Below are positions 20,754-35,911 of a stretch of 37,076 bases of DNA, piece by piece. The notes beneath the pieces were generated by a model. The model made no database searches, was not told where the DNA came from, and saw only the letters and a list, made by a program, of their open reading frames with translations. A program made the translations under genes and the position numbers. The stretch is from an uncultured virus (IMG/VR IMGVR_UViG_3300011906_000002) (lineage: Duplodnaviria > Heunggongvirae > Uroviricota > Caudoviricetes), in IMG/VR virus record IMGVR_UViG_3300011906_000002, positions 186,001 through 223,076 of that record; one strand, written 5' to 3'. Positions within the stretch are counted from its first letter, which is position 1, and each line of letters begins with the position of its first letter.

Positions 20754-22004
20754 ATGTCTCACCGCGACAATAGCCCAACCGGTCAGTACCACGCCCTGAT
20801 GGAAGACATTCTGGATAACGGCATCCATTGCGAGAACCGTACCGGAATCGACACCCATAGCGTCTTTGGGCGCGTGATGCGCTTTAACATCAGCAATGGT
20901 CAGGTACCGCTGCTACACAGTAAGAAGGTTTTCACCAAAGGCATCTTCCATGAACTGGTATGGATGCTCTCAGGCGATACCAACATTCGTTACCTCAAGC
21001 AACACGGGGTAAATATCTGGGACAGTTGGGTTAAACCCGGTACTGAAGAGTATCGCGATATGACTCATAATGAAGTCTTCGATGCATTGGTGTCCTTTAA
21101 GGTCAGCGATCGTTCGAACCAGAACGAGATCAGTCCGATCGATGATGTCGATGACCCGGAAGGTCTGCACAAGGACTACTTCGAAATCAACCGTACCGAC
21201 GTACGTCTGAAAATCCGGTACAGTACCGATGAATCGTTGCGTAATGCCTACCGTGAAGTCTTTGGCAAAGAACCGTTGGCGTTGGTGGCAGGCGAACTCC
21301 CGAAGATCTACCAGCACCAGTGGCGGCGTTGGGAATCGATCAAGACGGTGGTCAATGACAGTCCGCTGGTCGATTACTACCGGGACAATGGGTATCGTCT
21401 CTGGACTGAAGTCTATCAGCCTGAAGACCGCCTGACGTACGCCATCATGAAGAAGGAGTACGATCAAATCCAGATGTTGGTCGATAAGCTCAAGAATAAC
21501 CCCGACGACCGTCGCATCATCCTGTCGGCATGGAACGTGGCTGAAATTGAGGAGATGGCTTTGCCGCCGTGTCACACCCTCCTCCATCTCAAGCCCTACA
21601 AGCTGGGTCTCAGTGAACGTAAAGTGATAGCTGAAGAGCGAGACATCCCGTTGGAGCAAGTAGCAACGCATCGCTTGTCTGGTCTACTCTACCAACGCAG
21701 CGCTGACGTACCCATTGGAGTTCCCTTCAACATCGTCCAGTACTCGTTGCTGATCCAGATGTTGGCCCATGTCACCAACATGGAAACCGGTGAGTTCGTT
21801 TGGGTTGGGGGTGACTGTCACGTTTACGAGAACCAGATCGAGGTGGCCAACCAGCAGCTGTCTCGTCCTACCGAAGGTCCTTACACCCCACGGATAATTC
21901 TGGACCCACGGGTGAAGAACATCTTTGACTTCACAGTCGAAGACATCGCGGTGGTAGACTACAACCCACAACCTGTCCTCAAGTATCCAGCAGCGGCGGT
22001 GTAA
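20754..22004 (+). CDS. thyA: Thymidylate synthase with large insertions
   Basis: NRTGIDT, ELVWML.GDTNI, IWDSW, Y..QWR.W, DQI, NNPDDRRII.SAWN, MALPPCH, YQRSAD..GVPFN, GDCHVYENQ. Confidence 0.97.
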   Translation: MSHRDNSPTGQYHALMEDILDNGIHCENRTGIDTHSVFGRVMRFNISNGQVPLLHSKKVFTKGIFHELVWMLSGDTNIRYLKQHGVNIWDSWVKPGTEEYRDMTHNEVFDALVSFKVSDRSNQNEISPIDDVDDPEGLHKDYFEINRTDVRLKIRYSTDESLRNAYREVFGKEPLALVAGELPKIYQHQWRRWESIKTVVNDSPLVDYYRDNGYRLWTEVYQPEDRLTYAIMKKEYDQIQMLVDKLKNNPDDRRIILSAWNVAEIEEMALPPCHTLLHLKPYKLGLSERKVIAEERDIPLEQVATHRLSGLLYQRSADVPIGVPFNIVQYSLLIQMLAHVTNMETGEFVWVGGDCHVYENQIEVANQQLSRPTEGPYTPRIILDPRVKNIFDFTVEDIAVVDYNPQPVLKYPAAAV

Positions 22005-24463: not shown

Positions 24464-24476
24464 CAGAAATCGTATG
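24464..24476 (+). promoter_or_regulatory. Putative late promoter of fibre module 1
   Basis: CAGAAATCGTATG; near-identical to 28470-28482 and 35009-35020. Confidence 0.65.
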
Positions 24477-26955: not shown

Positions 26956-27576
26956 ATGGACGCTACAACACGGGCGGCCTTATCCGAGTCGATCGATAAT
27001 TTCTCTATGGCTATTAAAGGGAAAACCGATACACTCGAAGTAGGGATCGCTGAACAAGAAACAAACGCAATACAGCAAAGCGAACTGCGTGAGATTGATG
27101 GCATTCCGTACAACATCGGAACAGTGCGTAAGTCGATCTTCCAGGGGTTTATCGCAAACACCACAGGTACTGTGGAATCAACAAGTGCACAAGGGGATTT
27201 TGACCTAATTCCAAACCTAGGTACCAATGCTAACGTGTACGTGCACATCAAGGTTCCGATTAACGTCAATGTAAATTCGGAGATGATGTGGTTTCACCTA
27301 ACAGGGTATGCGTTTGGTGCTGCTAAGATCATTGACGAGGTAATCGTCGGTTACAGCTACGCTCCTAGTAAGACCCTTATGAACAACAGTGCATCAGGCA
27401 ATCTAAGTCCTGTTATGTATACCGATGCCAGTGGTAACGTGGTGTTGCGACTTTTGTTCCCAAGTATCTATTACGCCACGCTCAAGATCGATACCATGAA
27501 GGTGGGTAACGGTCGCCTGTTTCAGAAAGGCGATCTGATTGCCAGACTCTCACTTAGCGCTACCATTAACTTCTAA
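26956..27576 (+). CDS. Putative tail-fibre tip/lectin-like protein, paralogue B1
   Basis: 206 aa; short helical N-terminus then beta-rich domain; paralogous to 27817. Confidence 0.55.
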   Translation: MDATTRAALSESIDNFSMAIKGKTDTLEVGIAEQETNAIQQSELREIDGIPYNIGTVRKSIFQGFIANTTGTVESTSAQGDFDLIPNLGTNANVYVHIKVPINVNVNSEMMWFHLTGYAFGAAKIIDEVIVGYSYAPSKTLMNNSASGNLSPVMYTDASGNVVLRLLFPSIYYATLKIDTMKVGNGRLFQKGDLIARLSLSATINF

Positions 27577-27585
27577 GGAGTTATC

Positions 27586-27804
27586 ATGAACGAAGAAGAA
27601 GTACTTAAGGCTGCGTGGGCCTCTGTCCGGGAAACACGTACTCAGCTGTTACGTAAGACCGATTTCACACAACTCCCCGACAGTCCATTGACTGAAGCGC
27701 AGCGTGCTGAAGTGGCTACGTACCGTCAACAGCTACGTGACCTTACCGAACTCAGTCAAAGCCCGTTTGAGGTTGTGTGGCCGACTTCGCCGTCCTTCTT
27801 ATAG
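27586..27804 (+). CDS. Tail-fibre assembly chaperone
   Basis: W..VR..R..LL..TD.TQLPD.PL......YRQ.LRDL......V.WP..P is the classic phage tail assembly chaperone pattern. Confidence 0.85.
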   Translation: MNEEEVLKAAWASVRETRTQLLRKTDFTQLPDSPLTEAQRAEVATYRQQLRDLTELSQSPFEVVWPTSPSFL

Positions 27805-27816
27805 TGAGGTGACGTG

Positions 27817-28446
27817 ATGACCATGCAAGAAAATCTATTGGGTGCCGTCGGGTCAATCGAACAGTTAGTTGGTGATACTGCATTGGTCTTAAACGATCAA
27901 AACGCACGACTGGGTGTAGTGACCAACACCTTTTCAGAATTAGCCGATTTGCGGATGGTGGAAGGCGACCCCACTCGACCAGGGTGTGTGCGCCGAGCTA
28001 TCTTTCAAGGCATTGTGTACGCCACTGGTGGCCCACCCGGACTTGGTTCAGCTGGCGATTTTCCTCGGATAGATCTAGGTGAAACGTCCGCTGTCTACGT
28101 ACACTTCAAATTACCATTGAAGATCACCGTCAACAACCGCATGTTTCATTTGCGAATCCGTGGGTACTCTTACGGTAATGCAAAAGCGGTGGATGAAACG
28201 ATTGTCGGTTATTGCAAAGCCTCCTCAACACGGATAGAAGCGATCGCAACTAAAGGGAATTTCTCACCTACGGTTTACGTGGACGCTAACAACAATGTTG
28301 TCGTGAGGCTGTACTTTCCAAACATCTATTACACAACCGCCGTAATCGATTCCATGCGTGTGTCATCGGGTGCTGAAAGTGATATGTTCAAACGAGATGA
28401 CATAGTGGCAACGATGTCTAGAACATCCACCGTTAACTTCGGTTAA
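27817..28446 (+). CDS. Putative tail-fibre tip/lectin-like protein, paralogue B2
   Basis: ATG 27817 after GAGGTG; shares IFQG, GDF, VYVH.K.P, DE.IVGY and GN.SP..Y.DA..NVV.RL.FP.IYY with B1. Confidence 0.55.
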   Translation: MTMQENLLGAVGSIEQLVGDTALVLNDQNARLGVVTNTFSELADLRMVEGDPTRPGCVRRAIFQGIVYATGGPPGLGSAGDFPRIDLGETSAVYVHFKLPLKITVNNRMFHLRIRGYSYGNAKAVDETIVGYCKASSTRIEAIATKGNFSPTVYVDANNNVVVRLYFPNIYYTTAVIDSMRVSSGAESDMFKRDDIVATMSRTSTVNFG

Positions 28447-28482: not shown

Positions 28483-28535
28483 GGAAAGCACTGGGGAAGC
28501 CATGCTTTACTTTTTTAATCAACGGAGTCTCCACC

Positions 28536-30224
28536 ATGTCTGAGAAACGGTTTTTCGGCTTCGGTGAATTCGGAACTTGGGTTCGAGAGCAAGTCGCTGG
28601 GGTGATGTTGGCCCTGGGTGCTAAAGCTGACGCAACCTCCGTACACACCAAAACAGAAGCACTGGAAACCTTTTTGGCGATTGCTGGCAAGGCAGTGGAT
28701 TCGTCCTTGCTCGACGGCAACACCAAAGCCCAGATTATTCTTGAGGCAATTGCTAACGCTAACCTCGACAGTAAACTGGACGTTACAGCACGTGCCGAAT
28801 TTGCAACAGCTTTGCAGGGCACCAAGGCTGACAGTGCAATTCAACCTGATGTCTTGCAAGGGTTGTTAAACACCAAGCTTAATGCCTCGGGTTATACCGC
28901 AGGTGACGTCTTGGCTAAGTTGTTAACAGTTGATGGTGCAAGTTCTGGACTGGATGCCGACAAGCTCGACGGTAAACAACTGTCGGTGATTGAGTCTGAA
29001 TACAAAGCCTTTACTAACGCGGCAGTGGCTGCTCTGGTAGACTCTTCGCCCGATGCGCTGAATACGCTTAACGAGTTGGCGGTTGCTTTGGGTAATGACC
29101 CGAACTTTGCAACCACCATCACCAACCAGTTGTCCACTAAAGTTGACAACACTGACGCGCGTCTAACTGATGCTCGTGAATGGTTGGCCACCACAGTCAT
29201 CCAGTCTGAAGCTGAAACAGGTACTTCCACTACTCGCCGTGCATGGACTGCACAACGGGTGCGTCAAGCCATAACAGCTTGGTGGTCAGTGTCTGCAGAC
29301 AAAGCCAAGCTGGATGGAATTGCTGCAGGTGCAGACGTTAACGTACCCACCAATTTGGGTTACACCACAGGTGCTACTGCCGGTACTGTCACCAGCTCCA
29401 CTGGTACTAACGCCAGCCTGCCTGCAGCCACCACCGCAGCCGCTGGTCTGTTGAGTGCTACCGATAAGGTTAAGCTCAATGGGATTGCTGCTGGGGCCAC
29501 AGTGAACTCGACGGATGCTGCGTTGTTGGATCGTAGTAACCACACGGGGGCACAAGCGATCGCTACCGTGTCGGGTTTGCAAGCTGCACTGGATGCTAAG
29601 TTCAGCACTACCGGCGGCACTGTCAGCGGCAACATCACGGCCTCGAGTTTCTATTCCGCTAACTGGTTCCGCTCCACTGGTGCTACTGGCTGGTACAGCG
29701 AAACCTACGGCGGGGGCATCCACATGTCGGACACTACTTGGGTGCGTATTTACGGCTCCAAGAGTTTCTATGTGACTGGTAACATCGCAGCCACGGGTGA
29801 AATCAGCGGCTACTACTCCGATGAGCGTCTTAAAGAAAACATGACGCCTATAGTTGGGGCACTTGCTGGCCTGCGTACCATCAAAGGCTACCGGTACAAT
29901 GCCAGTGAACTGGGTGCTGAGTTTGGTTACGACCCACTCAAACCTGAGATCGGTTTCAGCGCTCAAGAATGGCAGGCCCTTGCGCCTGAGATTGTAGAGT
30001 TGGCACCTTTTGATTACAGTGATGACGGAGAACCGGGTGTATCAAAGTCGGGTGAACATTACCTGACCTTGAAGTACCATCGTACTCTGCCTCACGTGGT
30101 CATGGCTATCAACGAGTTAGCTGATTCTGTTGACAGTGATCGAATTGCTTTCCAACAATTGGTGGCCACGGTTGACGACATGAAAAAGCTGATCGCCGAC
30201 TTGCAAGCAGCCGCTCAGAAGTAA
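28536..30224 (+). CDS. Long tail fibre with C-terminal intramolecular chaperone (peptidase S74-type)
   Basis: 562 aa; MSEKRFFGF start; SGLDADKLDG, LVDSSPDALNTLNELA.ALGNDPNF, KAKLDGIAAGA, NHTG.Q fibre motifs; NWFRS.G.TGWY...YGGGI.M.D.TWVR segment; YSDERLKEN cleavage site; G..AQE; terminal coiled coil. Confidence 0.92.
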   Translation: MSEKRFFGFGEFGTWVREQVAGVMLALGAKADATSVHTKTEALETFLAIAGKAVDSSLLDGNTKAQIILEAIANANLDSKLDVTARAEFATALQGTKADSAIQPDVLQGLLNTKLNASGYTAGDVLAKLLTVDGASSGLDADKLDGKQLSVIESEYKAFTNAAVAALVDSSPDALNTLNELAVALGNDPNFATTITNQLSTKVDNTDARLTDAREWLATTVIQSEAETGTSTTRRAWTAQRVRQAITAWWSVSADKAKLDGIAAGADVNVPTNLGYTTGATAGTVTSSTGTNASLPAATTAAAGLLSATDKVKLNGIAAGATVNSTDAALLDRSNHTGAQAIATVSGLQAALDAKFSTTGGTVSGNITASSFYSANWFRSTGATGWYSETYGGGIHMSDTTWVRIYGSKSFYVTGNIAATGEISGYYSDERLKENMTPIVGALAGLRTIKGYRYNASELGAEFGYDPLKPEIGFSAQEWQALAPEIVELAPFDYSDDGEPGVSKSGEHYLTLKYHRTLPHVVMAINELADSVDSDRIAFQQLVATVDDMKKLIADLQAAAQK

Positions 30225-30235
30225 CTGCTATACTT

Positions 30236-30267
30236 AGGACTGAGTCGCAATGACTCAGTCCTTTGTT
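30236..30267 (+). terminator. Perfect 11-bp hairpin, possible leaky terminator or processing site
   Basis: AGGACTGAGTC-GCAAT-GACTCAGTCCT then TTGTT; no TATGCCG tail. Confidence 0.65.
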
Positions 30268-30291
30268 CTATTCATTGTGAGGTAATTCATT

Positions 30292-30843
30292 ATGGCATTG
30301 CCTACATCCGGTACGATCAGTTTCAGCATGATCAATATTGAACTGGGTCGTCCCGCTACTCAACGATTGAACTTAAGCGACGCCGCTATTCGACAATTGG
30401 CCGGGGCTTTAAGTGGTCCGGTAAACCTGTCCATGTTGCGGGGTAAAACCGTCAACAACAGCTTGGCCGAAGTGACGCTCGCTGCAGCCGCTTACGTACC
30501 TGCAGCAGGGTATGAATATGCAGGCTTCGGGTCGGCTACTTACGGTTCGATCTCACCCACCACTTTGTCCGGATACGCCATCCTGACTTGTTCGGTATTG
30601 AACTACGCCGGTAGCTACAGCTTATCTTTCGAAGTCAATACTGGTGGTGCGAGACCCGCTTGGTCTTATGCCACTAAGATTGTTATAGGTGGAGTGACTT
30701 TTTCAGGAGCCTTTGCACCCTTTACTAACACCAAAACTGGCACTACTACCATTGTCTTTTCTGTTGTTATTACGGCAGCTCAATTTAGCACAGTGCGTAG
30801 CGCCATCGTCAACCGTTCGACGGTTGTTAAACTTCTCCCTTAA
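30292..30843 (+). CDS. Putative fibre-tip adhesin / receptor-binding protein
   Basis: 183 aa; MALPTSG.IS...IN.ELG...L....R.LAG..SG...LS.L.GK N-terminus typical of proteins following S74-capped fibres; Thr/Ser/Gly/Tyr-rich beta C-terminus. Confidence 0.65.
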   Translation: MALPTSGTISFSMINIELGRPATQRLNLSDAAIRQLAGALSGPVNLSMLRGKTVNNSLAEVTLAAAAYVPAAGYEYAGFGSATYGSISPTTLSGYAILTCSVLNYAGSYSLSFEVNTGGARPAWSYATKIVIGGVTFSGAFAPFTNTKTGTTTIVFSVVITAAQFSTVRSAIVNRSTVVKLLP

Positions 30844-30852
30844 AGGTGACTC

Positions 30853-31089
30853 ATGTTTACGTTTGTTACTCGAAATGAAAAAAGTGTGGTGGTGGAGACG
30901 TTACACGGTAATGTAGAAATCTTCTACGAACCCATGAACGTAGGTACTCTACCACCTGACGAAGCATTCCTTCAAGGTATGGCTTATGCGGTGTTGTTTA
31001 ATTGCGGACTACCACACCAACCGGCCAGCAACCCCAATGAAGGGTTGGAAGAAACCCAAGTGACTCGAGAAGTCTCGGAGGACATTTAA
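30853..31089 (+). CDS. Small hypothetical protein
   Basis: 78 aa; AAGGTG RBS; abuts the next gene. Confidence 0.65.
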   Translation: MFTFVTRNEKSVVVETLHGNVEIFYEPMNVGTLPPDEAFLQGMAYAVLFNCGLPHQPASNPNEGLEETQVTREVSEDI

Positions 31090-31728
31090 ATGACTACAAC
31101 CTATACCCGTAACGGTTGGAACGTCACCCGCGTCAACGGGTTTGACTTGTTTGAACTGGTGCTTGAAAAAGACAAGATTGCAGCCATTCCTGTTGATGTG
31201 CCGAGTCAAGCCATTTTGGGTTCCAGTGATGCAGGTATCAACACCTACCGATTCAATGCGTTTATCGAGGGGACCTTCAAAGTCGGCTCCACGGTAACGC
31301 CTGAATTTATTCGTGGTCGTGGTGACGGGGCTGATGAAAGTCGCGTCACGGTTAAAGGCAGTTTCCATTTGGTTGGACTGGAGGAGCGCAATCGGTTTAT
31401 GTGCATCAACGCACAAGACCCAATGGCCAAACTGTACCTGTCGAAGAACTACGCCTTGGCACCGGGTGAGTCCTGTGTGATCACTCCTCGAGAGATGGAG
31501 CAAAACGTCTTCATTGTGGAAGGGGCTCTTCAGGTGAACGAAGGTGGGGTGTTCAACAACATCAAACACCTGCGCTTGACTAAACCTCAGGATTATAGCT
31601 TCCGTAACACCGGACAAGACAATGCGTTCTTGGTCTATGTTTATGAAGCAACTGTAGAAGAAGTCAAAGCCCAATGTACCAACGTTCCGGTGGATAGTTT
31701 GGCCACCGTTGAGAGTCTTCAGGAGTAA
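31090..31728 (+). CDS. Cupin/pirin-like double-stranded beta-helix protein
   Basis: 212 aa; two F..EG...V strands; LAPGES......VFIVEGALQVN......FRN......FLV resembles a pirin C-terminal cupin; no His metal motif seen. Confidence 0.5.
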   Translation: MTTTYTRNGWNVTRVNGFDLFELVLEKDKIAAIPVDVPSQAILGSSDAGINTYRFNAFIEGTFKVGSTVTPEFIRGRGDGADESRVTVKGSFHLVGLEERNRFMCINAQDPMAKLYLSKNYALAPGESCVITPREMEQNVFIVEGALQVNEGGVFNNIKHLRLTKPQDYSFRNTGQDNAFLVYVYEATVEEVKAQCTNVPVDSLATVESLQE

Positions 31729-31731
31729 CAC

Positions 31732-32520
31732 ATGCGAACCCCTCCATTTATGATTACCTATCCACGACTTAAAGTCGTGAATCGTTTGACAGCCGCCTGT
31801 GTCATGGCATCGCCACTCGTAGCGTTTGCTTTTGGTATGAGTTGGGGTCTGCTACTAGCGACCCTCGTGATCTGGCAGTTCATGCAAGTTGTAGGCTTAG
31901 TGGTAGGGGCGCATCGTTACTTCTCACACCGCATGTTCGCAACAAACCGCGTCTGGCAATGGATCATGGCTGTCAGTTGTGTCGGCGCCCTCACAGGACC
32001 ACCTTGCGTGTGGGCAGACTTACACATCAAGCACCACAAACACGCCGACGATGAAGACGATCCTTATATCGACTTCATTCGCACCGGGGTCTCACCGTTC
32101 AGTCATGAGAACTTCAAGGGTAATCGTACCTTGCTCAAGATGTTGGCGACTGACCCCATGCACGGTCTGACGATCAAGTATTACTTCTTGATAGTCTTAA
32201 CCTTGGCGTTGGTCTTAACCACCATTGGAACTGCAGCAGGCCTCGATCCGTTGACTGCGTTGTTTTGGCTGTATCTGGTCCCAGGCGGTTTGTGTCACAT
32301 GACCTTGCGCTTTGTGGTCTGGTCAGGACATGTACCGGGACTCGGTTACCGTAACCACGAGACACCGGATAACAGCCACAACTGGTGGTTGGTCTCATTG
32401 ATCTCTGGTGGAGAAGGCTGGCACAACAATCACCATCATGACCAAACCGCTGTCAACCTTCGCCAGAAATGGTGGGAGTTCGATCCTGCGTATTGGATTA
32501 TTAAGGCAATCCGTAAATGA
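31732..32520 (+). CDS. Membrane fatty-acid desaturase 1 (delta-9/DesC-like family)
   Basis: His boxes HRYFSH, HIKHHKH, GEGWHNNHH; hydrophobic TM segments; WWEFDP tail. Confidence 0.93.
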   Translation: MRTPPFMITYPRLKVVNRLTAACVMASPLVAFAFGMSWGLLLATLVIWQFMQVVGLVVGAHRYFSHRMFATNRVWQWIMAVSCVGALTGPPCVWADLHIKHHKHADDEDDPYIDFIRTGVSPFSHENFKGNRTLLKMLATDPMHGLTIKYYFLIVLTLALVLTTIGTAAGLDPLTALFWLYLVPGGLCHMTLRFVVWSGHVPGLGYRNHETPDNSHNWWLVSLISGGEGWHNNHHHDQTAVNLRQKWWEFDPAYWIIKAIRK

Positions 32521-33260
32521 AATACCTTCAGTTCAGCGGTAGAGCTTCGGTTCTAGTGGCTGTGCTGGCAATGGGGATCAGTTTGTTCTGCGTAATTCAC
32601 CCCAGTGCCTTATGGGTGCTGGGGAGTTTTATGGCCTTTCAAGTGTATTGGACCTGCGGCGTGGCATGCGGGGCTCATCGGTATTTTGTTCACCGGTCAT
32701 TTGAAACCAGTACATTCTGGCGAGAGTTTATGGTGTGGGCTATTTGTGCCGCCGGAGGACTCCATCCTTATATCAGCATTGCTATTCACCGTGAGCACCA
32801 CAAACACTCAGACACTCCAGACGATCCACACAACCATTATCGTGGTTGGGGTTTAGTCAACGCTAAGAAACTCAACCTGACTATCCCCAGACGGTTACGC
32901 AAACAGTTCTTAAGCGACCCGGTTGCCATGCGTATTCAGAAGTACTATCTCCTGTACCCTTTAGTTACAGCCACTGTTTTGGCCCTAGTGTCGTGGGAAG
33001 CCTTGATCTATTTATGGGCTATCCCAGCAGCACTGACCCAAGTGTTGCGTAAGACAGTATTGTTAGACTGGGTCCATCGGTTTGGGTATCAAAACTGGGA
33101 AACCAACGACCATTCTCGCAACTCCAAAATACTCGGTCTACTTTTTGGGGGTGAGGGTTTACACAACAACCATCACGCTTTTCCCAATCGCTGGAACATG
33201 GCCATGAAAAAAGGTGAGCTTGATCCAGGGGCGTGGTTTATCAGGTTAATCAAACGATGA
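32517..33260 (+). CDS. Membrane fatty-acid desaturase 2 (delta-9/DesC-like family)
   Basis: His boxes HRYFVH, HREHHKHSDT..DPH, GEGLHNNHHAFP; ELDP tail; ATGA overlaps at both ends. Confidence 0.95.
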   Translation: MKYLQFSGRASVLVAVLAMGISLFCVIHPSALWVLGSFMAFQVYWTCGVACGAHRYFVHRSFETSTFWREFMVWAICAAGGLHPYISIAIHREHHKHSDTPDDPHNHYRGWGLVNAKKLNLTIPRRLRKQFLSDPVAMRIQKYYLLYPLVTATVLALVSWEALIYLWAIPAALTQVLRKTVLLDWVHRFGYQNWETNDHSRNSKILGLLFGGEGLHNNHHAFPNRWNMAMKKGELDPGAWFIRLIKR

Positions 33261-34180
33261 AATTGAACCTACTCCAAAAGGCCTTTCTCAATGACGGGAA
33301 GGCCATGATGTACAGTAGCTTGAATGTACCGCTGTTCTCTTGTAGTCGAGACTTGATGCAAGAGGCTGTGGATGAACTCACGCATCGTATCCCACTGCTT
33401 AAGGCAGGTGTTGTGAACGGTAAAGTGATTACCCACGATCGGGTGCTAGTGACTCAAGGACATGGTGACCAACACCAAAACATCCCCAGCTGTTTAAGCG
33501 TTACTGAAGACCAGAACGGATTCTGGATCGGGTTGTCTCACGAATTCGTAGACGGTTGGACCTTCATGAAAGTCACCCGAGAACTTTTTAATATCGCCAG
33601 AACTGGCGAACTGGGTAACTACATCAGTAACCAACCCCTTCCAAAAATCCAAGCAACCGGTGCGTTAGAACTCAGACCTTTTCTCTTTCAAGGGGAGGTC
33701 GGATTAGCTAACACCTATTGCGTGCCCATCGGTACCGGCTATCTTAAAAACGCCAAAGCACAAGGCTTACGCGTACAGGACTACTTAGCACAAGTGGCTT
33801 GTGAGGTACTGGACAACCCTAATATCCTAACCACCCGTTTTGTTGAAGGGTGTGAGGACTACTGGGGCCATTATTCACTGTACGGTTTAGGGTCGAATAA
33901 AGACGGTCAGTTCTCCCTTGACATCAGTCATGAAAACTTCACACGACTGATCATGAAGTTTGGAATGAGTGAGAAGATTGGAAACTTCTTTGTTGGCTCG
34001 TTCCCCATTGGACCTAGCGCCTTCGAACCTACAGACTTGGTTCAGTTTCTTAAAAAGAATCAGATGGGTCGTTTACAAGTCATCTCGTATAACGGCACTC
34101 ATCATCTGCGGATCGCTTTCAACAAAGCTATCCCCAACCAAACAAAATACATCGACCAGTTTGTCGAGCTTTTATCATAA
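33257..34180 (+). CDS. CoA/ACP-dependent acyltransferase (condensation-domain/CAT-like fold)
   Basis: ATG 33257 in ATGA overlap; about 307 aa; LMQEAVDELTHRIPLLKA helix and SHEFVDGWT (HxxxDG catalytic motif). Confidence 0.6.
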   Translation: MKLNLLQKAFLNDGKAMMYSSLNVPLFSCSRDLMQEAVDELTHRIPLLKAGVVNGKVITHDRVLVTQGHGDQHQNIPSCLSVTEDQNGFWIGLSHEFVDGWTFMKVTRELFNIARTGELGNYISNQPLPKIQATGALELRPFLFQGEVGLANTYCVPIGTGYLKNAKAQGLRVQDYLAQVACEVLDNPNILTTRFVEGCEDYWGHYSLYGLGSNKDGQFSLDISHENFTRLIMKFGMSEKIGNFFVGSFPIGPSAFEPTDLVQFLKKNQMGRLQVISYNGTHHLRIAFNKAIPNQTKYIDQFVELLS

Positions 34181-34190
34181 GGAGGTCGGT

Positions 34191-34970
34191 ATGAAACTTT
34201 GGGAATACACTCGCTCCAGAGGCGAGTTCATGCCACTGCAAGTGGTTCTAGCAGTAGTCATGGTGCCTGTGTTTATTACGGTCGCTGATTTAGACTACCG
34301 GTGGTTATGGGCAACCTTGGGAATGGTCGCCTTCTTCAACGTCTGCTTGATAGAGGCCTTTGCTCACCGTTTCTGTACACACGGTGCTTATGAGCTTAAT
34401 AAGCCCTTAGAATGGCTCCTAGCCATCCTCACAAGTGTAGTGCCAGGGACAGGCTCAACTATCGGGTGGGCGATGATTCATGCAGCCCATCACCAATACT
34501 CAGACACGGCTAAAGATCCTCACAGTGCACAGTACTCCAAGTTTTGGGAGCTGTTGGTGTGGCGTTACCCTTACACTGGAAACTTGCATTCAGTGCGGTA
34601 CCTGACACGTGATCCGGTCCACAAAGCTTTGCACCAGTATTACTTGGTGTGGATGTTGGCTTGGGCTGGGTTGTGGTACGTCGTGGCGGGAATCAACGGT
34701 TTTGTTTTTATGGTCCTATTACCCTGGGGTTTGGGTCCTTTTCTCTCCACCGTACAGAACTACATGTTACATGCTGATGCACCGTTGAACTACCGCAATT
34801 TCAGCACGCCTGATAATTCACAGAATTCACCGAGCATGCATTTGTTAAGCTTTGGAGCGTGCGGATTACACAACAACCACCATGCTCATCCTCGAGCCTG
34901 GGTCACGGCGATGAAGAAATACGAGATTGATACAGCAGCGTGGTTTATCCGGTTGATCAAAAAAGATTAA
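34191..34970 (+). CDS. Membrane fatty-acid desaturase 3 (delta-9/DesC-like family)
   Basis: ATG 34191 after AAGGAGG; His boxes HRFCTH, HAAHHQYSDT.KDPHS, LHNNHHAHP; NYMLH; EID tail. Confidence 0.93.
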   Translation: MKLWEYTRSRGEFMPLQVVLAVVMVPVFITVADLDYRWLWATLGMVAFFNVCLIEAFAHRFCTHGAYELNKPLEWLLAILTSVVPGTGSTIGWAMIHAAHHQYSDTAKDPHSAQYSKFWELLVWRYPYTGNLHSVRYLTRDPVHKALHQYYLVWMLAWAGLWYVVAGINGFVFMVLLPWGLGPFLSTVQNYMLHADAPLNYRNFSTPDNSQNSPSMHLLSFGACGLHNNHHAHPRAWVTAMKKYEIDTAAWFIRLIKKD

Positions 34971-35008
34971 GTTTGTCATTCATTTACGGACTTTGCCCGT
35001 ACAAACTG

Positions 35009-35020
35009 CAGAATCTTATG
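35009..35020 (+). promoter_or_regulatory. Putative late promoter of fibre module 3
   Basis: CAGAATCTTATG upstream of the ATG at 35108. Confidence 0.65.
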
Positions 35021-35029
35021 AGAGTGCGA

Positions 35030-35073
35030 TGAAAAAGGGCTCTCGACACTGGCCTCTCGATTAACCTTTTTCA
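35030..35073 (+). promoter_or_regulatory. Structured 5' leader hairpin with CACTGGCCTC loop
   Basis: TGAAAAAGG/CCTTTTTCA outer stem and TCGA/TCGA inner stem enclosing 35047-35056. Confidence 0.6.
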
Positions 35074-35107
35074 AGCCGCTGTATCACTAAACAACTGGAG
35101 CAACACC

Positions 35108-35911
35108 ATGTCTGAGAAACGTTTTTTCGGTTTTACCGAATTTTCGAGCTGGGTGTCGACTAAGGTTAGCGATGCTCTCGCTATCGTCGATGCGGCCCTA
35201 AGCTCCACTGTGAAAAAGACCGATGACTTCGGTCAATACAAGGTCGGCGAGCTGGAACTGTCTGCGCTTCTGGCAGACTTGGCTTCGGGGGCTGATCTGG
35301 CGACCCTGCAACAAGGCTTCAATGATTTCGTCGCTGCTAAGGCCACGACTCTGGAAGCCGTCGCCGGTACTGATGACGTCAAGTACATCACTGCTCTGAC
35401 AGCCAAAGCGGCCATCGAGGCAGCGGTTAACGACCTGGTTGGTTCTTCTCCGGAAGCACTGAACACCATCGCCGAACTGGCAGAAGCACTGTCGAACAAC
35501 CCAGACGTGATCACTGAACTGACTACCCTGGTAGGCCAAAAGCTTGATGCAAACGCACAGGCCACTGACTCTGCCAAGCTGGGTGGTCAACTGCCTGGTT
35601 ACTACGCTACCGCTGATCAAGTGGCTAGCAAGCTGGATTCGACTGCTACTGCTGCTGACTCTCAGCGTCTGGGTGGTCTGTTGCCGGGTAGCTATGCAAC
35701 TGCTGAAGCCTTGGCTGGCAAACTGGGCACTGGTGCTCAAGCTACCGACTCGGCTAAGTTGGAAGGGCGTTCCAAAGCTGAAGTCATGGCCGACACCAAG
35801 GCTTTTCTGGCTCTGGGCACTGCGTCTAAATCCGACATCTTCGTATCCACTGTGGACCCGATCTCTACCGATGGTAAAGACGGCGACCTCTGGATCAAGT
35901 ACACTCCGTAA
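35108..35911 (+). CDS. Short tail fibre (MSEKRFFGF family, module 3)
   Basis: 267 aa; LVGSSPEALNTIAELAEAL.NNP, three KL......DS..L.G repeats, terminal P...DG.DGDLWIKY motif. Confidence 0.85.
   Translation: MSEKRFFGFTEFSSWVSTKVSDALAIVDAALSSTVKKTDDFGQYKVGELELSALLADLASGADLATLQQGFNDFVAAKATTLEAVAGTDDVKYITALTAKAAIEAAVNDLVGSSPEALNTIAELAEALSNNPDVITELTTLVGQKLDANAQATDSAKLGGQLPGYYATADQVASKLDSTATAADSQRLGGLLPGSYATAEALAGKLGTGAQATDSAKLEGRSKAEVMADTKAFLALGTASKSDIFVSTVDPISTDGKDGDLWIKYTP
35540..35770 (+). repeat. Degenerate 90-nt (30-aa) tandem repeat within the fibre gene
   Basis: Units begin at 35540, 35630 and 35720: KLDANAQATDSAKLGG..YATA / KLDSTATAADSQRLGG..YATA / KLGTGAQATDSAKLEG. Confidence 0.8.

Follow-up and report, generated by a model that had tools for sequence, protein, structure and literature searches.

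Introduction

Receptor-blocking genes of phages adjoin the gene for the receptor-binding protein, as exemplified by llp of T5 and cor of phi80. Pelagimyophages and cyanomyophages carry hypervariable 'host recognition clusters' that combine tail fibres with surface-modifying enzymes, and in the accessible part of the report describing them the authors read these clusters as altering the surface against co-infection (PMC7029224). The same portion of that report mentions a desaturase only as a stearoyl-CoA desaturase among the genes unique to freshwater pelagimyophage genomes. For vFAD-I and vFAD-II, the lipid desaturases of cyanophages, acyl chains of the host are the presumed substrate in infection (PMC5776448). 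In a bacterial system, CdiC, a homologue of HlyC, acylates lysine in the class IV receptor-binding domain of CdiA, and this modification, according to the accessible portion of the paper, promotes binding to target-cell LPS (PMC8510554).

Here, we describe a gene cassette from a 37,076-nucleotide stretch of phage DNA (hereafter, the window) that appears to be a lipid-tailoring pathway encoded by a virus and not described before; our search returned no published description of it. An earlier note on this DNA had proposed an acyl-tailoring system built from three desaturases, an acyltransferase and a cupin. What stands of that proposal is that the genes are intact, form one block and belong to families compatible with oxidation followed by transfer; the triple unit and an analogy to polyyne clusters did not hold.

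Results

A compact gene block between two tail-fibre genes

The cassette (30292-34970) resides in the 223-kb genome of a phiKZ-like phage and comprises seven genes, all on the plus strand and spaced by 9, 0, 3, −4, −4 and 10 nt, with both overlaps reading ATGA. These ORF coordinates bear out the tight, co-directional packing noted before, and matches to Pfam Peptidase_S74 and tail-fibre PHROGs likewise confirm that fibre genes flank the block, the one upstream being S74-capped. This upstream gene, which heads the module, encodes a 562-aa tail fibre (28536..30224, plus strand) with a C-terminal Peptidase_S74 intramolecular chaperone (PF13884, residues 428-487, E 6.8e-10) and 29 PHROG matches, the majority to tail-fibre families. 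Past its stop codon and ahead of the cassette, a scan for terminator-like structures located a 12-bp stem-loop followed by a weak T tract (30236..30262, plus strand). Downstream of the cassette lies a 267-aa tail-fibre gene (35108..35911, plus strand; 19 PHROG matches, mainly to tail-fibre and tail families) that has the N-terminus MSEKRFFGF and 5′ sequence in common with the S74 fibre.

A motif scan placed a conserved element (GAATCTTATG; 35009..35023, plus strand), a putative promoter, at the start of this next fibre module. The motif GAA(A)TC(T/G)TATG has three copies in the 223-kb genome (window positions 24466, 28472 and 35011), always at a distance of 60-100 nt from the fibre gene that follows, and the scan of that genome found none in front of or inside the cassette. 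The absence of this fibre upstream motif within the block, together with intergenic distances of 0-10 nt or overlaps at ATGA, supports a predicted operon character.

Two conserved desaturases and one lineage-specific addition

Three cassette genes encode desaturases, as had been claimed: each has complete His boxes and a Pfam FA_desaturase match exceeding the gathering score. Desaturase 1 (Des1; 31732..32520, plus strand; 262 aa; PF00487 E 7.9e-18), an SCD/DesC-type membrane diiron enzyme, and its sister paralogue Des2 (32517..33260, plus strand; 247 aa; E 2.3e-13), which has an ATGA overlap at each end, are core members, with about 50% and 52% identity, respectively, to the Des1 orthologues and DesB of loci L005-L007. 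Des3 (34191..34970, plus strand; 259 aa from ATG; E 1.3e-15), preceded by a ribosome-binding site (TAAGGAGGT) 6 nt upstream of its start, is a lineage-specific addition found only in the window and in L004, that is, in two of six loci. The three paralogues are 30-34% identical to one another, Des3 to Des1 and Des2 included. In the IQ-TREE analysis, Des1 formed a six-row clade (support 99) and Des1 plus Des2 a 12-row clan (SH-aLRT 99), outside which Des3 fell (IQ-TREE subset). The earlier 'triple desaturase' therefore does not hold as a unit: the conserved core has two, and the third is found in a minority of loci and outside their clan.

All eight His-box histidines are invariant in 12 desaturase sequences, hydrophobic hairpins lie at residues ~10-60 and ~143-188, and a profile search of the PDB returned SCD1 as the sole match (E 6e-24 for 4YMK, and 3e-23), in alignments that bring the three boxes into register. 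The cassette desaturases cluster with viral, not bacterial, sequences (a branch with support 95 sets the bacterial rows apart). Identity is ~30-37% to other viral desaturases and 27-36% to the best bacterial relatives, for which only two of the 79 top loci hold more than one copy.

A miniature condensation-type acyltransferase

The gene between Des2 and Des3 (33257..34180, plus strand) encodes 307 aa when read from its ATG, eight codons downstream of the GTG at 33233 that was listed as the start. The product, a soluble protein, carries the motif S-H95-E-F-V-D99-G100-W, in which H95, D99 and G100 are invariant across ten sequences, and is predicted to fold as a complete, miniature NRPS-type condensation domain, a stand-alone member of the CAT superfamily. 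Its AF2 model (pLDDT 92.4) found NRPS Cy/C domains as best Foldseek matches (E 1.6e-13) and VIA gave a Z score of 23.4 and an rmsd of 3.1 over 304 of 307 residues; the fold thus substantiates the HxxxDG acyltransferase-like protein suspected earlier. A profile search of the PDB matched bacitracin synthase 3 at its HHxxxDG motif (E 0.0054). The protein has no Pfam match, and Condensation was detected in none of ten family members. The family counts nine representatives among 1.84 billion proteins, and a motif scan of bacterial genomes confirmed no member.

The remaining cassette proteins

The 212-aa protein preceding Des1 (31090..31728, plus strand) is a core member present in all six cassette loci, predicted to be soluble as no hydrophobic segment was detected in it. 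It may have a cupin fold: the 'cupin-like' label finds signals in its favor, all of which stay below threshold (Pirin_C at E 0.013 in three of five family members; KduI at E 0.076) or at lead level (ESM-Atlas neighbors scoring 0.87-0.88). A search of 5.8 billion proteins returned one other cluster only.

The first gene of the block (30292..30843, plus strand) encodes an adhesin/tip-like protein of 183 aa that matches phrog_26817 (E 1.2e-8), a family of unknown function to which a 180-aa neighbor in L012 also belongs (E 1.1e-11). For the earlier designation as a fibre-tip protein, the family match holds and the tip identity itself amounts to a weak lead: Gp38_N occurs in 16% of the members of one Atlas neighbor cluster. 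The protein has a conserved N-terminal part of ~53 residues and a variable C-terminal part, with L-R-G-K52 and K148 invariant in five sequences. Its first ~53 residues are common to 62 viral loci, of which only four have the cassette and 58 lack it within 5 kb.

The following 78-aa ORF (30853..31089, plus strand) is conserved in L004-L007, absent from the L012 locus and had no family match in Pfam and PHROG searches. Between the window and L004 it shows pN 0.047 and pS 0.687. Because the GGLS motif of L005-L007 reads GTLP in the window, the 78-aa protein has no conserved carrier-protein serine.

The core is inherited as a block in three phage lineages

The cassette loci, defined as all those holding the acyltransferase, number six (the window, L004-L007 and L012) and represent three lineages rather than six independent events. 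In each of the six, a core of the cupin-like protein, Des1, Des2 and the acyltransferase follows genes for an S74 fibre and an adhesin-like protein: S74 fibre homologues precede the cassette in L004-L007, and the L012 order is S74 fibre, phrog_26817 protein, cupin-like protein, two desaturases and acyltransferase. L012 is a complete, unrelated 108-kb phage without the phiKZ-type structural protein that four of five searched records have. The expectation that homologues would co-occur with each other and with fibre genes was thus borne out, even on an unrelated backbone, and the sequence flanking the block differs among the three lineages. Judged from substitution patterns, every cassette gene is under strong purifying selection, with pN of 0.03-0.10 against pS of 0.49-0.85 between the window and L004 and dN/dS of 0.03-0.08 wherever dS is unsaturated.

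That the cassette comprises enzymes of cellular types and lies near the end of the record might suggest a host-derived insert or an assembly artefact without phage function, an explanation to which we assign next to no probability and which our data contradict. Its GC content (0.47-0.50) stays inside the window range (0.45-0.56), gene order is identical in L004 (protein identity 82-94%), the core was found again in four further phage records, and selection and the low identity to bacterial sequences likewise speak against it. Moreover, an 8,584-letter contig from another study covers window positions 28511-35141 with 225 differences and joins fibre, cassette and next fibre. In other runs, contigs are broken or branched at positions 28511 and 35105-35142. 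The misassembly considered in the earlier note is contradicted by the L004 order and the independent contig.

Related desaturases in other viral loci

Desaturases of this kind are encoded by at least 541 viral stretches. Among 78 desaturase-bearing viral loci, 33 have 2-10 copies, often next to receptor-binding genes: in seven, a desaturase pair lies at most three ORFs from an Mtd_N receptor-binding protein (directly adjoining in six), and another fibre-linked lineage has the pair followed by a gene matching phrog_462 ('lipoprotein', E 9e-13). In seven other loci, located in virion structural modules, a compact desaturase adjoins protein-lysine acyltransferases of the HlyC family (PF02794, E 4.9e-27). 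One viral contig, L080, combines ten desaturases with a ketosynthase, a PP-binding carrier and a phosphopantetheinyl transferase.

Discussion

We tentatively favor, at somewhat less than an even chance, a reading of the cassette as a lipid-tailoring operon within the phage's host-recognition (tail-fibre) module that acts on the envelope of the infected cell. The enzyme families, as assigned by homology and fold, suit a pathway in which an acyl chain is oxidized and then transferred. The desaturases would reside in the inner membrane of the host and oxidize acyl chains supplied by it, by inserting double bonds or through related reactions; we speak of desaturation as the presumed chemistry because the FA_desaturase superfamily also includes hydroxylases, ketolases and acetylenases. 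Searches of the whole phage genome found no PP-binding carrier, AMP-binding ligase or rubredoxin, and given that the phage lacks a carrier protein or activating ligase, the host would have to supply the donor as acyl-lipid, acyl-CoA or acyl-ACP. Moving the acyl group from a thioester to an amine or hydroxyl acceptor would then fall to the condensation-type enzyme. That this acceptor may be an envelope lipid or glycolipid of the infected cell is the weakest step of the proposal: condensation-domain enzymes usually use carrier-protein or CoA thioesters and small-molecule acceptors, and we know of none that acylates an envelope lipid. The cassette would thus probably alter the infected cell's envelope, changing the surface recognized by the neighboring fibre and adhesin so as to mask receptors, exclude superinfecting phages or shield progeny from debris—by analogy, the same logic as in receptor-blocking genes beside receptor-binding genes. 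The host recognition clusters of pelagimyophages and cyanomyophages, read as surface-altering (PMC7029224), and the phrog_462 'lipoprotein' gene after the desaturase pair of another fibre-linked lineage favor this host-surface reading. The fibre linkage could also merely reflect fibre regions being insertion hot spots.

This linkage (six of six loci, two backbones) is predicted equally well if the acceptor were the phage's own tip protein, with the adjacent adhesin-like protein or the fibre receiving an unsaturated acyl chain at a lysine or at its N-terminus. A lipid on the receptor-binding tip would then insert into the host outer membrane. Amide formation comes naturally to condensation domains, the adhesin-like protein offers invariant lysines (K52 and K148), and the desaturases next to HlyC-family enzymes or Mtd_N proteins in other viruses point the same way, as does, in the accessible portion of PMC8510554, the non-phage precedent of CdiC acting on CdiA. 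We regard such tip lipidation as a serious rival, though clearly less probable than the envelope reading. Against it, the HlyC loci belong to different phages with a different transferase, and the 58 of 62 adhesin-like loci devoid of the cassette imply that the tip family generally does without these enzymes. To our knowledge, moreover, no condensation-superfamily member acylates a folded protein.

Less probable again is a diffusible product, whereby serial desaturation would yield a polyunsaturated or alkynyl chain released as an ester or amide to serve as a signal, antimicrobial or anti-phage compound. Three ancient paralogues, each ~50% conserved across lineages, suggest distinct positional specificities, tandem arrays are common among viral loci, L080 links its desaturases to the ketosynthase and carrier named above, and stand-alone C domains are known chain-release enzymes (e.g., the enacyloxin entry in our Foldseek list). 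However, the genome encodes neither carrier protein, acyl-AMP ligase nor rubredoxin, the conserved core has two desaturases instead of three, the fixed fibre linkage is left unexplained, and a lytic giant phage would presumably have little time to gain from a secreted compound. Slightly more doubtful still are ordinary membrane-fluidity auxiliary metabolic genes (AMGs) that would render host phospholipids more unsaturated in infection, with the other genes as unrelated passengers. The abundance of viral stretches with such enzymes and the name 'stearoyl-CoA desaturase (delta-9)' given to relatives by their sources favor this idea, as do the cyanophage vFADs, which the available part of the report describes as DesC-like delta-9 lipid desaturases active on C16 chains in yeast (PMC5776448). 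Yet it explains neither the joint retention of two to three divergent paralogues, multiple copies of which are rare in top bacterial loci, nor the translational coupling to the acyltransferase through an ATGA overlap, nor the co-inheritance of four core genes in all six loci.

Comparison with known systems

Bacterial polyyne clusters (caryoynencin, cepacin or protegencin type) and JamABC resemble the cassette in their side-by-side desaturase-family genes, presumed to act on one acyl chain. Other defining parts of polyyne clusters are a fatty acyl-AMP ligase, a dedicated ACP and a rubredoxin. None of these was found in the genome-wide search and the cassette core has two desaturases; we therefore rejected membership in this class, and with it the caryoynencin-type analogy of the earlier note.

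Stand-alone condensation-domain acyltransferases share with the cassette enzyme a two-lobed fold that extends along the entire chain (Z 18-23) and the His-x3-Asp-Gly motif. In contrast to these comparators—which, going beyond their PDB titles, we take to be PapA5, VibH, SgcC5, the RzmA starter C domain and the enacyloxin chain-release C domain—the cassette protein spans 307 rather than ~390-450 residues, replaces the first His of HHxxxDG by Ser, Thr, Asn or Asp, goes without a Pfam Condensation match throughout its family and has no cognate carrier protein in the genome.

CdiC/HlyC and CdiA, where a lipid on a receptor-binding protein aids Gram-negative outer-membrane recognition, provide a functional analogue for tip lipidation; as far as the accessible part of the paper goes, they differ in enzyme family (TAAT/HlyC), bacterial origin and lack of a desaturase (PMC8510554). 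HlyC homologues adjoin desaturases in other phage contigs, not in the window. The vFADs, like the cassette desaturases, are phage-encoded, membrane-bound DesC/SCD-type enzymes of the delta-9 family with three histidine boxes; in the portion of the report available, they constitute one cyanophage AMG of two genotypes, with tandem sets not described (PMC5776448). The cassette instead unites, by translational coupling, two to three divergent desaturases with the 212-aa protein and a condensation-type acyltransferase, and its position after a fibre gene is constant in a phiKZ-like phage as well as a 108-kb one. Host recognition clusters, finally, likewise mix tail-fibre genes with non-structural enzymes and are read as changing the host surface; as described in the accessible part of that report, they span 34-45 kb in T4-like phages and contain mostly glycosyltransferase and radical SAM genes (PMC7029224), whereas the cassette is a compact operon of four to five genes kept as a block.

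Genome context and architecture of the cassette

The window is the final 37 kb of a 223,076-bp source record that carries direct terminal repeats. Two results indicate a giant phage distantly related to phiKZ: proteins of the record match PHROG families of internal head and virion proteins, and a tblastn search with one structural protein matched 289 phage records, the best of them (36% identity) being jumbo phages of Xanthomonas, Burkholderia and Ralstonia. No nucleotide similarity was found between the cassette, or 25 kb of the window, and any of 50,697 phage records.

The interval 30292–34970 is filled by seven plus-strand ORFs encoding, in order, an adhesin-like protein (183 aa), a 78-aa protein, a cupin-like protein (212 aa), the desaturases Des1 and Des2, a putative acyltransferase (307 aa) and a third desaturase, Des3. 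Spacings are 9, 0, 3, −4, −4 and 10 nt; both overlaps read ATGA, and a strong ribosome-binding site precedes des3. The cassette is flanked on both sides by fibre genes whose products share the start MSEKRFFGF; the upstream fibre, of 562 aa, has a C-terminal Peptidase_S74 chaperone (PF13884, E = 6.8e-10, profile positions 1–57 of 58). The earlier note's description of seven co-directional, tightly packed genes behind an S74-capped fibre is thus borne out. The GC content of the cassette is unremarkable.

A 12-bp hairpin is located just 3′ of the stop codon of the S74 fibre gene. Across the 223-kb genome there are just three copies of the motif GAA(A)TC(T/G)TATG (window positions 24466, 28472 and 35011), each 5′ of a fibre gene, and a whole-genome motif search placed no copy ahead of the cassette; it may be a candidate late promoter or a mere remnant of fibre-gene duplication. 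Scans for sigma-70 promoters and terminators, which are of small value for a phiKZ-like phage, returned fewer matches than in shuffled sequence.

In another study, a contig of 8,584 letters spans window positions 28511–35141 with 225 differences. Contigs from three other runs diverge from the window precisely where the two fibre genes share their 5′ ends (28511; 35105–35142), and one contig has the same 30 letters at its start and end. We infer that these divergence points are what a module swapped by recombination at the fibre 5′ repeats would be expected to look like, suggesting a shuffling of fibre modules at this shared repeat. Just upstream of the S74 fibre, at 26956–28446, two paralogue-like ORFs of ~206–210 aa stand on either side of a 72-aa tail-fibre-assembly protein (phrog_4912, E = 1.8e-21), in what appears to be a further small tip-plus-chaperone unit. 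Elsewhere in the window (20754–22004), a thymidylate synthase of 416 aa, whose residues 4–415 match a PHROG profile of 335 positions, probably carries an insertion.

Three compact diiron desaturases of probably different history

Des1, Des2 and Des3 are compact (247–262 aa), share 30–34% identity with one another and score 65.6, 50.9 and 58.3 bits, respectively, against the FA_desaturase family (PF00487; curated cut-off 29.7). Des1 and Des2 each have an orthologue of ~50% identity in other phages. Across an alignment of 12 cassette desaturases, eight histidines in three boxes (HX4H, HX2HH and HX2HH; H61, H66, H98, H101, H102, H231, H234 and H235) are invariant. Searched against the PDB, the corresponding 12-sequence profile had mammalian SCD1 as its sole matches (E = 6e-24 and 3e-23), the histidine boxes of the two lining up. 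A Kyte–Doolittle plot, a crude method that is not a topology predictor, gave hydrophobic segments at ~6–60 and ~143–188 in all three proteins, in line with two hydrophobic hairpins or four membrane spans. By family, these are integral-membrane diiron enzymes of the SCD/DesC type with a predicted desaturase activity; against the NCBIfam DesA-family equivalog they score 55–68 bits, far under its 400-bit cut-off.

We built a FastTree phylogeny of 184 rows and an IQ-TREE phylogeny of a 75-row subset; the subset was made by removing five long-branch rows, thinning redundant ones and choosing at random which viral and bacterial rows to keep. In the FastTree phylogeny the bacterial rows all lay to one side of one branch (support 80) and the 14 cassette rows all to one side of another (92). 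IQ-TREE retained the bacterial split (95) and united Des1 and Des2 in a clan of 12 rows (99), with Des3 falling outside it, among other viral array desaturases. As the monophyly of all 14 rows was not reproduced, we limit our claim to the Des1–Des2 clan: in these trees, Des1 and Des2 are sister paralogues that arose inside the cassette lineage, and Des3 is a later and probably separate acquisition.

A trimmed condensation-domain enzyme

The 307-aa protein had no match in Pfam, PHROG or NCBIfam, and none of ten family members matched any acyltransferase family at E ≤ 1. The family is rare: a word-indexed search of 5.8 billion clusters yielded three clusters, and an exhaustive HMMER search of 1.84 billion proteins nine representatives. 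No bacterial relative was confirmed in a motif scan of 185,579 species, each represented by a single genome, nor were any of 188 pattern matches in a scan of metagenome contigs. This subfamily appears, by these searches, to be almost confined to phages.

Among the ten sequences, down to 23% identity, the motif x-H95-x3-D99-G100 is invariant, the first histidine of the canonical motif being replaced. A profile search of PDB sequences paired this motif, weakly (E = 0.0054), with its HHxxxDG counterpart in the NRPS condensation domains of bacitracin synthase 3 and McyA. An AlphaFold model based on the ten-sequence alignment reached a pLDDT of 92.4 and a pTM of 0.89 (three sequences gave a pLDDT of 48.5) and comprises both lobes of a two-lobed, V-shaped fold. 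Foldseek returned 254 PDB matches at E ≤ 0.001, topped by cyclisation (Cy) and condensation (C) domains, and VIA-align aligned 304 of the 307 residues to these ~410-residue domains (Z = 23.4, rmsd 3.1 Å). The fold and the invariant H95, D99 and G100 confirm the earlier assignment as an HxxxDG acyltransferase-like protein, and the model indicates that it is a complete but trimmed condensation-domain enzyme. Given that it matches no Pfam family, we class it outside PF00668, as a distant and new subfamily of this fold.

The accessory proteins

The window's 212-aa protein had no match in Pfam. Its family shows cupin signals at the level of leads (Pirin_C, E = 0.013 in three of five members; KduI, E = 0.076), as do its Atlas neighbours (scores 0.87–0.88), and no solved structural relative was found by sequence. 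We compared its profile, as the sole query, with those of neighbour families from other desaturase loci; the best link, a weak one, was to a 177-aa family encoded upstream of desaturase pairs (36% probability, E = 3.7e-4), and there was no match to the two Pfam-positive cupins of another viral locus, L038.

The 183-aa protein matches phrog_26817. Its N-terminal ~53 residues are shared by proteins of 75–437 aa at 62 viral loci, which fits a conserved attachment domain joined to a variable receptor-binding part. In one Atlas neighbour cluster, 16% of the members carry Gp38_N. For the 78-aa protein there was no family match and, specifically, no PP-binding signal; this, along with the replacement of the GGLS found in the related records L005–L007 by GTLP here, where the serine of a carrier protein's GGxS is missing, led us to reject it as an acyl carrier protein in this phage. 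A general partnership with the adhesin family is not supported either, the 78-aa gene being present in only 4 of the 62 loci with that family. A complex prediction for the 183-aa and 78-aa proteins scored 0.00 with the fold of the partner uncertain, and is neutral on binding.

The cassette is conserved next to fibre genes

The acyltransferase recurs in five further viral records (86% identity in L004, 47% in L005–L007, and a member in L012). All six loci share one gene order—S74 fibre, phrog_26817-type protein, cupin-like protein, two desaturases, acyltransferase—so that the cassette homologues do co-occur with each other and with fibre genes. The 78-aa gene is absent from L012, and the third desaturase is confined to the window and L004. 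The phiKZ-type structural protein present in the other four records has no homologue in L012, which belongs to a complete 108-kb phage, and beyond the block the flanks are unlike among the three lineages. Between the window and L004, pN is far below pS in every gene, with dN/dS at 0.03–0.08 and dS saturated in two genes.

Desaturase arrays in other viral loci

A desaturase-profile scan of viral contigs confirmed 541 of 612 candidate stretches. Our survey set consisted of 78 loci from the best 80 stretches which, after removal of four duplicates and addition of L004–L007, left 78 distinct loci. One desaturase is present in 45 of these, two in 27, three in 3, and four, five and ten in one each. 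Multi-copy loci thus make up 33 of the 78 viral loci (2–10 desaturases) compared with 2 of 79 bacterial ones (the 80 best loci, 79 of which had a desaturase match), suggesting that desaturase arrays are a common theme in viruses. Bacterial desaturase ORFs were longer than viral ones.

A recognised fibre or receptor-binding gene lies within five ORFs of the desaturases in at least 18 of the 78 loci, a lower bound since many ORFs in the other 60 have no annotation. These 18 fall into three lineages, and all have two or three desaturases; among the other 60, PHROG tail-fibre families occurred only in fragments of one of the three. Recurrent neighbours across the survey were radical SAM (25), GNAT (15), asparagine-synthase-like (13) and B12-radical SAM (9) proteins, Asp/Arg beta-hydroxylases (9 loci), HlyC-family acyltransferases (7) and Mtd_N receptor-binding proteins (7).

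Several arrangements stood out. In L015–L018 and L022 (also L025 and L050), a desaturase pair comes immediately after an Mtd_N receptor-binding protein and is itself followed by a 185-aa protein and an Asp/Arg beta-hydroxylase. Six loci (L035, L037, L039, L042, L049 and L062) have tail-fibre genes, a 90-aa ORF, a 177-aa ORF and a desaturase pair, after which four of them (L035, L037, L039 and L062) carry a 76-aa lipoprotein-like ORF (phrog_462); it is this 177-aa ORF that shows the weak profile link to the window's 212-aa protein. L065, L068 and four more loci encode a lone desaturase near a major head gene; its neighbours are an unannotated protein of 928 aa on one side and, on the other, one of 465 aa with a cell-wall-hydrolase domain. 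In seven loci (L020, L021, L033, L041, L074, L083 and L084), a gene for an HlyC-family (RTX-toxin-type) lysine acyltransferase directly adjoins a compact desaturase. Such pairs lie within virion structural modules, one group being surrounded by scaffold, major head and ejection-protein genes and the other by terminase and portal genes, which hints at acylation of virion proteins.

Two arrays are larger. L038 (2397–8937) holds five tandem desaturases with overlapping stops and starts, then a B12-binding radical SAM enzyme; two 205-aa proteins follow the array, one with Cupin_2/AraC_binding matches. L080 (1–14738 of a 52,582-bp contig) packs ten desaturase genes into 15 kb along with genes for a ketosynthase, a phosphopantetheinyl transferase, a PP-binding carrier of 80 aa, an ATP-grasp enzyme and a Rieske protein. 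The contig is classed as viral, and the set resembles a lipid natural-product cluster that depends on a carrier.

A putative acyl-tailoring pathway and its possible acceptors

The enzyme families, translational coupling and co-inheritance of the cassette are most naturally read as an acyl-chain tailoring pathway, for which the acyl donor would have to be host-supplied. As acceptor we favour a host envelope lipid, because the enzymes would act at the membrane and because receptor-blocking genes sit beside receptor-binding genes. A further reason is that enzyme islands beside fibre genes have been interpreted as surface alteration (PMC7029224). If the favoured reading is right, the lipid surface of the infected cell would be rewritten, a new, lipid-based form of receptor masking.

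Alternatively, host acyl chains might be desaturated and then attached by the condensation-domain enzyme to the adhesin-like protein or the fibre. Lipidation of the tail tip would explain the linkage to adhesin genes equally well. In other phages, desaturases occur together with HlyC-type protein acyltransferases, and a lipidated receptor-binding domain is known from bacteria (PMC8510554). We nevertheless regard tip lipidation as unlikely. Were it true, the tail tip would bear a tailored lipid with which to anchor in the host outer membrane, and the desaturase pairs and arrays beside receptor-binding genes as well as the phage HlyC-type enzymes would be variants of one undescribed strategy. 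We know of no earlier lipid-modified phage adhesin.

Comparison with known systems

The earlier note had likened the cassette to caryoynencin-type polyyne clusters, which comprise three desaturase/acetylenase genes, a fatty acyl-AMP ligase, an acyl carrier protein (ACP) and a rubredoxin. The window encodes three desaturase genes, which may or may not include acetylenases, but only two of the six related loci have three, the core having two. Moreover, the 223-kb phage genome contained no match to a PP-binding carrier (PF00550) at E ≤ 0.1, nor to an AMP-binding ligase (PF00501) or a rubredoxin (PF00301). Given these missing parts and the two-desaturase core, the polyyne analogy is weakened.

In the openly available full-text literature, we found no description of a phage operon with multiple desaturases or with a desaturase plus a condensation domain. 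The nearest accounts concern the cyanophage desaturase vFAD (PMC5776448) and host-recognition clusters (PMC7029224). What emerges here is a conserved, putative multi-enzyme operon in which several desaturases and a dedicated, putative acyl-transferring enzyme are physically tied to host-range genes. To our knowledge, phage desaturases have hitherto been known as the single membrane-fluidity genes of cyanophages, whereas in the present cassette several are coupled to an acyltransferase.
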